Positions 34,586 to 37,274 of a stretch of 56,670 nucleotides of DNA are shown here, piece by piece (the first letter of the stretch is position 1; every line of letters starts with the position of its first letter). The translations under genes were made by a program, and so were the position numbers. Origin of the DNA: a virus (taxonomy: Duplodnaviria; Heunggongvirae; Uroviricota; Caudoviricetes). Where the stretch lies: the IMG/VR virus record IMGVR_UViG_3300045988_159288; one strand, written 5' to 3'. Below the pieces are notes generated by a model, which saw nothing but the letters and a program-made list of their open reading frames with translations, had not been told where the DNA came from and searched no databases.

Positions 34586-36600
34586 AAGAGCTGTGCTATG
34601 GATCTGTTTGCAGTGGAATTGAAGCCGCGAGTATTGCCTGGGAACCGTTGGGTATGCGTCCGGCGTGGTTTGCTGAAATCGAGCCTTTTCCATCTGCCGT
34701 TCTTGCGCACCGCTGGCCCCATGTCGCCAACCTTGGCGACATGACAAAACTTGCCAAAAAAGTCCTGGCTGGGGAAATCGAATCCCCTGATGTGCTCGTC
34801 GGGGGTACGCCTTGTCAGGCATTCAGTATCGCGGGCTTACGTGGTGGGCTTGATGATGAACGCGGCGCGCTAACTTTGAAGTATGTGGAGCTTGCAAATG
34901 CAATTGACGACAAACGGTCTGAGTCCTTCCTCAAACCGACAGTTATCGTCTGGGAAAATGTCCCAGGAGTCCTGTCATCGGCAGATAACGCCTTCGGATG
35001 TTTCCTTGCCGGATTGGCTGGAGAAGATGCGCCATTTGAACCAGGTGATCGACCTGAATCAGGAAAAAGTAACGCGTTCTGGCGGTGGGATGGCAAAACC
35101 GGTTGCCATGCTCCAAAGTGGCCGCAGTGTGGTTGTATTTATGGACCGCAGCGAAAGGTGGCCTGGAGAATCCTTGATGCCCAATACTTCGGAGTGGCAC
35201 AACGACGCCGACGCGTGTTTGTTGTCGCAAGTGCTCGAACAGACCTCGATCCCGCAACGGTACTTTTTGAGTTCGAAGGCGTGCGCCGGAATATTGCGCC
35301 GAGCAGAGGCGAGGGGAAGGAAACTACCAGATATACTTCAAACATCGCTATCAGATCTTGCGATGATACAAACATAGTTGCCATGGCACATGGGCAAGGA
35401 GGGGCTGAGATAAAAACCGATAATTCGGCACCAACTTTGACATGTAACCATGAAGCACCAATTGTATTGCTCGTCGACGGTAGAATGCGCCGTCTTATCC
35501 CTGTCGAATGTGAAAGGCTGCAAGGTTTTCCTGATGGACATACATTGATCCCTACGGAAAAGCGTAAAAAAGTTTCTTCAGATGAACTGGCATACCTTCG
35601 CAAAAACTATCCTGATTTGAGCGAAGAAGAGGCCGCGATGCTTGCAGCTGACGGACCGCGTTACAAAGCGATCGGCAATAGTATGGCGATACCAGTAATG
35701 CGCTGGATTGGCGATCGGATTGCCAAGGCTGCATGTCGGCAGAAGGAAGGGAGTGAAACAAAAGAGCGAAAAGTTAAACCAGCGGCAGAATTCGAACGGT
35801 CCATATTCAAATGGGCTGGTGGAAAATTTGGTGTTCTGGAACAAATCTTTCGCTATTTGCCAGAAGGGAAGCGCCTGATTGAGCCTTTCGTTGGTGGCGG
35901 AGCTGTCTTCATGAATGCCGGATACCAGGAAAATCTGCTAAATGATGTGAATGCTGACCTGATTAACTTTTACAAGACTCTGCAACGCGAGGCGCATTCA
36001 CTTATCACTCTGGCACATCGTTTCTTCCAGGACTACAACACGCAGGAAGGATACCTGGCAGTACGGAATGCGTTTAACAAACAAGTCTATGATGATTTAC
36101 ATCGCGCAGCGGCGTTTTTGTTCCTGAACCGACATTGTTTTAACGGATTGACGCGTTACAACCAAGCCGGTGAGTTCAATGTCGGTTATGGGAAGTATAA
36201 AACTCCGTATTTCCCATTGCAGGAGATGGAAGCCTTCCTTGGTGCGGAAGGGCGTTCTGAGTTTGTATGTGGTGATTTTGCTGCGGTGATTGAAGCTGCC
36301 GGAGAAGGAGATGTCATCTTTTGCGATCCGCCGTATGAACCGCTCCCAAATACAGAGGGATTCACGAACTATTCCGGTCATGACTTTAAGTTTGAAGAGC
36401 AAAAACGCCTGGCGTCTCTGTTGACGGATGCTCATCGCCGAGGTGCAAAGGTTCTCATTACTAACAGTGGCGCGCCAAACATCAGAGAACTTTATCAGGA
36501 CAGTGGCTTCAGAGTGGAACCTCTTTTTGCCAGACGTTCTGTGTCTTGTAAGGGGGACACTCGAGGTGTTGCTCATGACGTTATAGCAATATTGCTCTAA
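34582..36600 (+). CDS. dmt: Bifunctional DNA methyltransferase: N-terminal C5-cytosine MTase fused to C-terminal Dam-like N6-adenine MTase
   Basis: 672 aa; GTG start after GGAGAGG, overlapping the hrdC stop; PCQ motif [12 protein letters not shown] and ENV motif in the N-terminal half; FVGGGAV and DPPY motifs in the C-terminal half. Confidence 0.8.
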
Positions 36601-36607
36601 TAAATTT
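36591..36607 (+). promoter_or_regulatory. Perfect C1-type operator with embedded promoter (head of the tRNA/ban operon)
   Basis: ATTGCTCTAATAAATTT, 17 of 17, overlapping the dmt stop codon; TTGCTC-N17-TAATAT. Confidence 0.75.
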
Positions 36608-36784
36608 ATTAGTGTAATATCGCCTCAATGAATCGTGATTTATAGAGCGATTTAGCTGTTAGCCGCGACAGGCGCGGCGGCAAGTATGGCGGGGTAGTGA
36701 CTCCTTCCCCCTCATGACGCCGAGTTGCCAGGTTGACCATACGCCTAAGTGGCAACACCGAAGTGCGTTACGAGCTTCCAGTTT

Positions 36785-36811
36785 GCCCATCTTCGGGTGG
36801 GCGTTTTTTTC
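36785..36811 (+). terminator. Intrinsic terminator/attenuator about 180 nt downstream of the operator-promoter
   Basis: Hairpin GCCCA-tcttcggg-TGGGC followed by GTTTTTTT. Confidence 0.55.
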
Positions 36812-37274
36812 AGGGTTTTCGTCATGGTTAGCGACTTTGCGGCGGTTTAGAAACTGACCATTAAAGTAAATGCAAACGATGATCTGATGATGGTAGCGGC
36901 CTAAGAAGCCAGACGCCACGGGGTATGAGTCGTCCCCCGTCAAAAAATCGACCGCAGAGTGTCCCCGTCTGTGTATTAGGGAACGGGGAGGCACAACAGG
37001 TAAGGGCGCTGGTGTGATTAACCAGATGAACGAGAAGGGGCCATCTGTTGGTCAGCGTCCTTTCCTGTTGCGTCTTCTTTTCAGCGTAACAGCGGTGCTT
37101 AACAGCACTTTGGGTACAGTTCCACGAATTTACGGGTATATCCCGTCATGCTGAAAGCGCTAATCACGCTGGAAGCCAGGGTTATGCATCCCCTGTTACC
37201 GAATTGCAGCCAGGGCGCGGTGCGCCGAAAAGCATACGGAGGTGGAAGCCCTCGCCGGAGACGTACCCGGCAAG

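Follow-up and report, generated by a model that had tools for sequence, protein, structure and literature searches.

The leader of ban in a P1/P7-type phage-plasmid probably gives rise to an RNA of the type of DicF, a small RNA of E. coli prophages, but with a seed different from that of DicF. The promoter, Pban, is predicted to be repressed by C1, with most transcripts stopping within the leader and some reading through to tRNA genes and ban. The DNA analyzed is a virus record of 56,670 nt (IMG/VR record IMGVR_UViG_3300045988_159288), hereafter the window, and positions are those of the window unless another record is named. The leader lies downstream of dmt, begins at the C1 operator Op72ab, and ends at an intrinsic terminator located upstream of the tRNA genes. 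Evidence comes from identity to annotated features of P1 and P7, homology and covariation of a structured domain, swappable tails downstream of that domain, and stability of the terminator. More tentatively, we suggest that the leader encodes a trans-acting small RNA of a widespread prophage cassette, in which one pseudoknotted 5' domain would be a platform for biogenesis or stability and would be combined with swapped terminator-ended seeds, DicF being one of 11-12. The operator, the promoter, the terminator, and the label "dicF-like" are already annotated in P1. Of main interest is the nature of the leader RNA, which combines a domain of DicF precursors with its own near-invariant tail in the place where DicF sits.

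A Structured Domain Shared with DicF Precursors

The leader is 184 nt long, counted from a start predicted near 36627 through the last U of the U-run at 36810. On the plus strand, it consists of a 5' hairpin (36629-36654 in the minimum free energy fold of 36627-36811), a conserved structured domain of ∼110 nt (36655-36756), a tail specific to P1 and P7 (36757-36784), and the terminator (36785-36810). The domain was delimited by homology to the stretch 5' of DicF, pair counts, and a covariance model. Positions 36663-36760 are ∼80% identical to a noncoding stretch just 5' of DicF in lambdoid dicBF operons. In two prophage loci on plasmids, the end of this stretch is ∼24 nt upstream of a genuine DicF (RF00039, 77 bits), and dicB comes next. 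The stretch is present in 4,424 of 5,426 complete E. coli genomes, with a median of two copies and with the ydfC-dicB spacer of K-12 included, and in 61 phage records. A covariance model built from the domain, R1, gives 105 bits at 36645-36774 and no second match in the window. Neither the conserved domain nor swappable tails were described in the papers that we could read, and a 2025 review of phage small RNAs includes only c4 for P1 (PMC12197685). A contig scan with CAGGTTGACCATRCGC was set aside: it returned at least 120 loci, and among the matches listed only that of E. albertii extended to the remainder of the domain, the others resembling chance 16-mers.

The domain is probably folded into a pseudoknot. 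The proposed fold, based on an alignment (A1) of 32 nonredundant copies, has a hairpin (36662-36678), a closing helix (36678-36681 with 36719-36722), a variable hairpin (36691-36694 with 36707-36710), a 7-bp helix (36724-36730 with 36750-36756), and a pseudoknot helix in which GUAUGG (36684-36689) is predicted to pair with CCAUAC (36737-36742) in the loop of the 7-bp helix. It also has an outer helix, which is strong in lambdoid copies and just 4 bp long in P1. Across A1, 94% of cells are paired, versus 29-56% when partners are slid by one to three columns, and nine pairs are altered on both sides, versus 3.5 in shuffles. Between P1 and the window, a U-A pair of the pseudoknot helix is changed to C-G, with a U-G intermediate in Salmonella phage F1055, and the closing helix differs by C-G versus U-A. 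Because the sequences are related and independent events are few, we grade the fold as probable and not as proven.

Terminator-Ended Tails Downstream of the Domain

The P1/P7-specific tail carries the candidate seed CACCGAAGUGCGUUACGAGCUUCCAGUUU and occupies the position of the 5' part of DicF. It is predicted to fold into a small hairpin (36760-36778) followed by AGUUU. Identity between the window and P1 varies along the leader. The 5' leader (36621-36654), which includes the 5' hairpin, is 100% identical, the structured domain 80.4%, the tail 96.4% (one mismatch in 28 nt), and the terminator (36785-36811) 96.3%. Relative to P7, positions 36655-36770 are 100% identical, compared with 83% for P1 and most P1-like phages, and identity in the flanks is 94-100%. 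These comparisons mark 36655-36770 as a small patch of mosaicism that stays within the structured domain, with the P7 variant in the window, and constraint appears to be stronger on the tail than on the domain before it.

Tails were surveyed by scanning IMG/VR with an exact core, which yielded at least 120 loci. Among the matches listed, the domain is followed by a variable tail of 40-100 nt that, at full length, always ends in a GC-rich hairpin and a U-run. At least 11-12 classes of tails are distinguished among these listed matches (one may be a truncated copy of another); DicF is the commonest, and the classes also include the tail of P1/P7 and one from a D6-like plasmid that is shorter. 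The P1/P7 leader has the same arrangement, with the conserved domain directly 5' of a tail that ends in a hairpin and a U-run. We use "DicF-locus cassette" for a domain plus a terminator-ended tail in a repressor-controlled prophage operon; the term is defined in this analysis and is not a curated family. A separate observation concerns phage record PP818812 (L253, 1560-1760), in which one tail variant, seed and terminator together, is tandemly duplicated behind a single copy of the domain. The record is labeled Actinobacillus but resembles an E. coli lambdoid phage (DicA, YdaT, Kil, and exonuclease VIII).

The terminator, the candidate 3' end of a short RNA, has a 7-bp GC-rich stem (GCCCAUC, 36785-36791, with GGUGGGC, 36796-36802) and a UUCG loop, followed by G and U7 (36804-36810). 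The hairpin has a folding energy of -11.3 kcal/mol, and its pairs have probabilities of 0.96-0.97 within the ensemble of the whole leader. An earlier note on this DNA, made from the letters alone, had placed a terminator ∼180 nt downstream of the promoter and upstream of the tRNA genes, in agreement with the 184 nt measured from the predicted start. The terminator is kept in P1, P7, D6, and D6-like plasmids. It is also the first strong terminator on the plus strand after dmt and thus after the C1-controlled uhr-hrdC-dmt operon. In the ensemble, no alternative structure competes with the terminator hairpin, and a switchable attenuator is therefore not supported. Rfam searches of the region at gathering and permissive thresholds also gave no cis-regulatory family, only tRNAs reaching threshold, and a riboswitch-type leader was rejected on both grounds.

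Operator and Promoter

The operator at 36591-36618 is, by sequence and position, the P1 operator Op72ab, or Oban(ab), itself. Half-site Op72a (Oban a; 36591-36607, plus strand) matches the C1 consensus ATTGCTCTAATAAATTT at 17 of 17 positions and is the only perfect copy in the window, as the earlier note had claimed. Also as claimed there, it overlaps the end of dmt, whose stop codon TAA (36598-36600) lies inside it. Half-site Op72b (Oban b; ATTACACTAATAAATTT; 36602-36618, minus strand), a match at 15 of 17 positions, is inverted relative to Op72a, overlaps it by 6 bp, and spans the -10 hexamer, making the arrangement bivalent. The second half-site had been overlooked when the site was described as a single operator, and Op72, which had been named as a P1 site for comparison, turns out to be this very site given the P1 and P7 records and 100% identity. 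The GenBank record of P1 annotates a monovalent Obana (former Op72a), Obanb (former Op72b), and a divalent Obanab that "controls expression of ban" at homologous positions, and the P7 record annotates Op(ban[a]) and Op(ban[b]).

The sigma-70 promoter that had been recognized at the operator, TTGCTC-N17-TAATAT, is present at 36592-36620 (plus strand; -35 at 36592-36597, -10 at 36615-36620) and is annotated in P1 as P1ban with exactly these hexamers. The hexamers agree with the sigma-70 consensus at 7 of 12 positions, a poor match that explains their absence from a generic promoter scan. Between 36591 and 36620, operator and promoter are 100% identical to P1, and together the two half-sites cover both hexamers. 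From the spacing, transcription is predicted to start at the A at 36627/36628. The P1 record also has a predicted second promoter, P2ban, which is transferred by alignment to 36575-36606 (plus strand; -35 ATGACG, 36575-36580; -10 TAAATT, 36601-36606), and a "dicF-like region" whose end coincides with the terminator. The earlier note overlooked three points: the correspondence of the leader to this annotated region, the structured domain that the leader has in common with DicF precursors, and the position of the terminator after uhr-hrdC-dmt as well.

Op72 with Pban is a classic early P1 promoter controlled by C1 and Bof, Bof being another name for Lxc. C1 has 22 operators on P1 with an asymmetric consensus, ATTGCTCTAATAAATTT, and Lxc is its corepressor (PMC8546580). 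Expression of ban is controlled by C1 and induced on thermal inactivation of C1, but to a level below those of ref, ssb, dmt, and kilA (PMC4713147). Binding of C1, its enhancement by Lxc/Bof, and repression at the site in the window are predicted, being carried over from the annotation of P1 and the literature. None of the D6-type relatives carries a C1 operator closer than 1.5 kb to the terminator that they share with the window, and operator control of the leader is therefore specific to the P1/P7 lineage.

Nine matches to the consensus with three or fewer mismatches are found in the window, versus 0.30 expected from shuffles. Apart from Op72a and Op72b, seven sites resemble C1 operators with one to three mismatches, at 16113, 18169, 33315, 47025, 50650, 50699, and 52791. 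The site at 33315-33331 (plus strand, 16 of 17 positions) corresponds to Op68 (Odmt), the operator of the uhr-hrdC-dmt operon; P1 annotates Odmt/Pdmt, and the alignment offset places it here.

Proposed Mechanism and Alternatives

DicF is made by early intrinsic termination within an operon and by 5' cleavage with RNase E, and readthrough carries dicB (PMC5069750; PMC9438474). Because the P1/P7 leader has the same layout as the DicF locus, we propose that it likewise yields a terminated RNA and a readthrough fraction. In a lysogen, C1 and its corepressor Lxc (Bof) would cover both promoter hexamers and keep the promoter off. Upon inactivation of C1, RNA polymerase would start near 36627 and transcribe the 5' hairpin, the ∼110-nt pseudoknotted domain, and the ∼28-nt P1-specific tail. 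Most transcripts would end at 36785-36810, producing an RNA of ∼184 nt. By analogy to DicF, RNase E would probably cut this RNA 3' of the domain, leaving a small RNA of ∼45-55 nt that ends in the terminator and would bind Hfq. The fraction that reads through would carry a tmRNA-like piece, tRNA-Asn and tRNA-Thr, tciABC, tRNA-Ile, and ban. Since transcripts of the C1-controlled uhr-hrdC-dmt operon also stop at this terminator, the 3' untranslated region (UTR) of dmt could be a second source of the small RNA. In this scheme, we infer the efficiency of termination, processing by RNase E, dependence on Hfq, and any function or target in trans. The earlier note had offered attenuation of the downstream transcript or a short operator-controlled RNA. 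Both fit, probably at once as at dicF-dicB, except that the attenuation would not be of a switchable kind.

Several observations weigh against a trans-acting small RNA of a shared cassette. The Rfam DicF model (gathering threshold of 48 bits) has no match in the window at E values up to 10, in comparison to 77 bits for each of the two positive controls (L003 and L004), and the tail is therefore not a homolog of DicF. When duplexes were predicted with the start of ftsZ, 92% of shuffled tails performed as well as or better than the real tail, but this is a weak test in which DicF itself ranks only in the top 17%. Within the window, complementarity to the tail is limited to chance-level 10-mers. 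Covariation in the domain reflects few independent events among related sequences, and the model has an effective sequence number of 1.54. Finally, D6 keeps the terminator hairpin with a different upstream segment and has neither the domain nor a C1 operator, implying that the terminator can exist without the cassette.

Some of these observations can also be read in terms of a plain terminator. Its function would be to end the uhr-hrdC-dmt operon and passively brake transcription from Pban, the RNA would be a by-product with no function in trans, and the domain would be baggage from a lambdoid-like early operon. Consistent with this, no strong plus-strand terminator lies between dmt and this one, which is located 184-210 nt past the stop codon, D6 has it without the domain, no target turned up with the weak ftsZ test or the chance-level 10-mers of the window, and the lower induction of ban relative to other C1-controlled genes is as expected of a plain brake (PMC4713147). 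A plain terminator does not, however, predict a tail that is 96.4% identical (one mismatch) beside a domain that differs by 20% between P1 and P7 types, nor a domain whose pairing is kept by compensatory changes. It also leaves aside the coupling of one domain to at least 11-12 terminator tails among the matches listed, with a proven regulator, DicF, among them. We consider this explanation unlikely, while giving it serious weight.

A role in cis for the domain as an antiterminator is improbable. According to this alternative, the domain is a put-like processive antiterminator that allows polymerase to pass the terminator at 36811 and the downstream hairpins and to reach ban, which is ∼3 kb from Pban in the window and 2.6 kb from it in P1. 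The domain does precede a terminator that must be passed in three settings, namely from Pban to ban, from the dicB promoter to dicB, and in phage Ayreon, where it is ∼300 nt downstream of a promoter beside the repressor gene and no N-like gene is annotated. Moreover, put RNAs are located just after early promoters and act alone (PMC9378689). But with filters off, the best match of R1 in the HK022 immunity region is only 7.7 bits (E value of 1.4), indicating no relationship to put. The pseudoknotted fold with multiple helices also differs from the two stem-loops of put. Tight coupling of domain and terminator tail suits RNA biogenesis better than suppression of termination, and DicF is known to arise by termination at the corresponding position.

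Least plausible, to a degree that we scarcely credit it, is a small protein encoded in the leader. Open reading frames (ORFs) do exist at 36714-36857 (plus strand), 36609-36758 (minus strand), and 36659-36994 (minus strand), and a "hypothetical protein" is annotated under the match in JL22, SJ46, and others. None of the three ORFs matches Pfam or PHROGs, however, and they cross the terminator or the structured domain. Variation is like that of an RNA, with compensatory changes of pairs and insertions and deletions in hairpin loops, and the curated records of P1 and P7 lack a coding sequence (CDS) here.

A DicF-type small RNA with readthrough to ban, if correct, would provide a mechanistic explanation for the weaker induction of ban than of other C1-controlled genes. 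If the tail is a regulator, prophage induction would release a small RNA from P1, from P7, and from the hundreds of P1-like plasmids carried by clinical E. coli, Salmonella, and Klebsiella, and DicF would be one member of a swappable family of prophage small RNAs. Under the cassette proposal, P1 would release a new regulator directed at host or phage upon induction, followed by a tmRNA-like tag RNA on the same transcript.

Genomic Context and Downstream RNA Elements

Identity across the region shows the window to be that of a P1/P7-type phage-plasmid. Megablast with 36400-37500 gives full-length matches of 97.0% identity to P1 and 98.3% to P7; RCS47, SJ46, and other P1-like phages also match along the full length. 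In PLSDB, 36560-37290 matches 650 plasmid records by blastn, some with 100% identity. Gene order is as in P1/P7, with the uhr-hrdC-dmt operon followed by the intergenic stretch, tRNA-Asn (37276-37351), tRNA-Thr (37354-37429), tciABC, tRNA-Ile(CAU) (39430-39505), and ban. The ORF at 34582-36600 (plus strand), taken from the ORF list, is identified as Dmt because both C5-cytosine (PF00145) and N6-adenine (PF02086) methylase domains are present, in line with the P1/P7 annotation (dmt/dam) of a bifunctional DNA methyltransferase; in the window, it is of the shorter P7 type (672 aa). One relative differs by an insertion. In K. pneumoniae pSCKLB684-mcr (L006, 1411-3000), a gene encoding TnpB (IS200/IS605 type) is located between Op72 plus the leader domain and the tmRNA-like piece, suggesting that the ban leader tolerates insertions.

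Directly after the terminator is an element that resembles a transfer-messenger RNA (tmRNA; 36815-36990) and contains a 10-codon ORF, ANDDLMMVAA* (36872-36904). An in-frame ORF of the same length is present in Klebsiella phage-plasmids (ANDDVVLMAA), Felixounavirus (ANDNVFLAVA), Kuttervirus (ANDNTFLAVA), and a Drexlerviridae phage (ANDDLMLMAA), and synonymous changes are found between variants. By blastn, the element matches 722 phage records, and among the best 25 of the 722 there is no RNA annotation. ARAGORN finds no tmRNA in the element, and the Rfam model tmRNA_permuted scores 24-34 bits, under its threshold of 47. In some phages, the element has a sigma-70-like promoter just 5' and is followed by a tRNA-like domain with G3-U70 and ACCA; the window has no such tRNA-like domain. 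In a 2014 census, ssrA turned up only among mycobacteriophages and in Bacillus phage G (PMC4131195).

Five repeated hairpin units with long stems (ACAACAGGTAAGGG ... CCCTTACCGTTGTG) are located at 36990-37075, 37431-37515, 37645-37720, 37850-37960, and 38128-38215. They enclose a junction with hairpins like a D-arm and a T-arm, resembling a tRNA elbow; the unit at 37431-37515 has GAGGG-TTCGAAT-CCCTA. Their architecture is similar to that of YrlA, a bacterial Y-RNA-like RNA, but the Rfam YrlA model gives no match. P1 annotates the CDSs plp and upl on the opposite strand over this region. Similar units occur downstream of the small-RNA tail in the lambdoid loci L041 and L252.

Matches to the Rfam STnc100 model, below threshold (38-40 bits; threshold of 47), are found in the window (38204-38324), L128 (2803-2923), and L003 (3172-3381), the last of which corresponds to the DicF-dicB spacer. 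Seen through these subthreshold matches, 38204-38324 is a homolog of this spacer, and the P1-type ban leader therefore has both flanks of a lambdoid dicF locus, with ∼1.4 kb of RNA genes between them. In the place of dicB stands tciA. The arrangement suggests that the P1 ban leader is a lambdoid dicF-type locus that was split by inserted RNA genes.

Comparison with Known Systems

Relative to Op72ab and P1ban of P1 and P7, the window has the same sequence over 36591-36620, position at the dmt stop codon, inverted bivalent layout, and downstream gene order, and there is no difference in operator or promoter. Resemblance to other systems is partial. Like putL and putR of HK022, the leader is a structured nascent RNA that follows an early repressor-controlled promoter and precedes terminators. 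The put RNAs, however, are ∼70 nt in length and have two stem-loops together with a triplex; they lack a pseudoknot, and no terminator tail is attached to them. Homology to put was rejected because of the negative result with R1, and put is retained as a functional analogy of low probability. With Hfq-associated small RNAs from 3' UTRs or from within operons, such as CpxQ, SdhX, and SroC, the leader shares a terminator-ended RNA for which a 5' end made by RNase E is expected. It differs from them by a promoter of its own, which lies within the 3' UTR under repressor control, and by a large 5' domain that is conserved.

The closest parallel is the DicF locus of Qin-type dicBF operons (RF00039). 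In both, the conserved domain directly precedes the small RNA, which ends at a terminator within an operon whose downstream genes rely on readthrough, and the locus is in the 3' UTR of a preceding gene and is under control of the prophage repressor. The P1/P7 tail, in contrast, is unrelated to DicF in sequence, with no match to the covariance model and, in a weak test, no signal of complementarity to ftsZ. The P1 cassette begins just ∼30 nt after its own promoter, and the counterpart of the DicF 3' flank is 1.4 kb further on (38204-38324) and not beside the tail. The P1/P7 leader, as judged from these comparisons, is not a member of the DicF family and is like the DicF locus by position and by the upstream domain that the two share.

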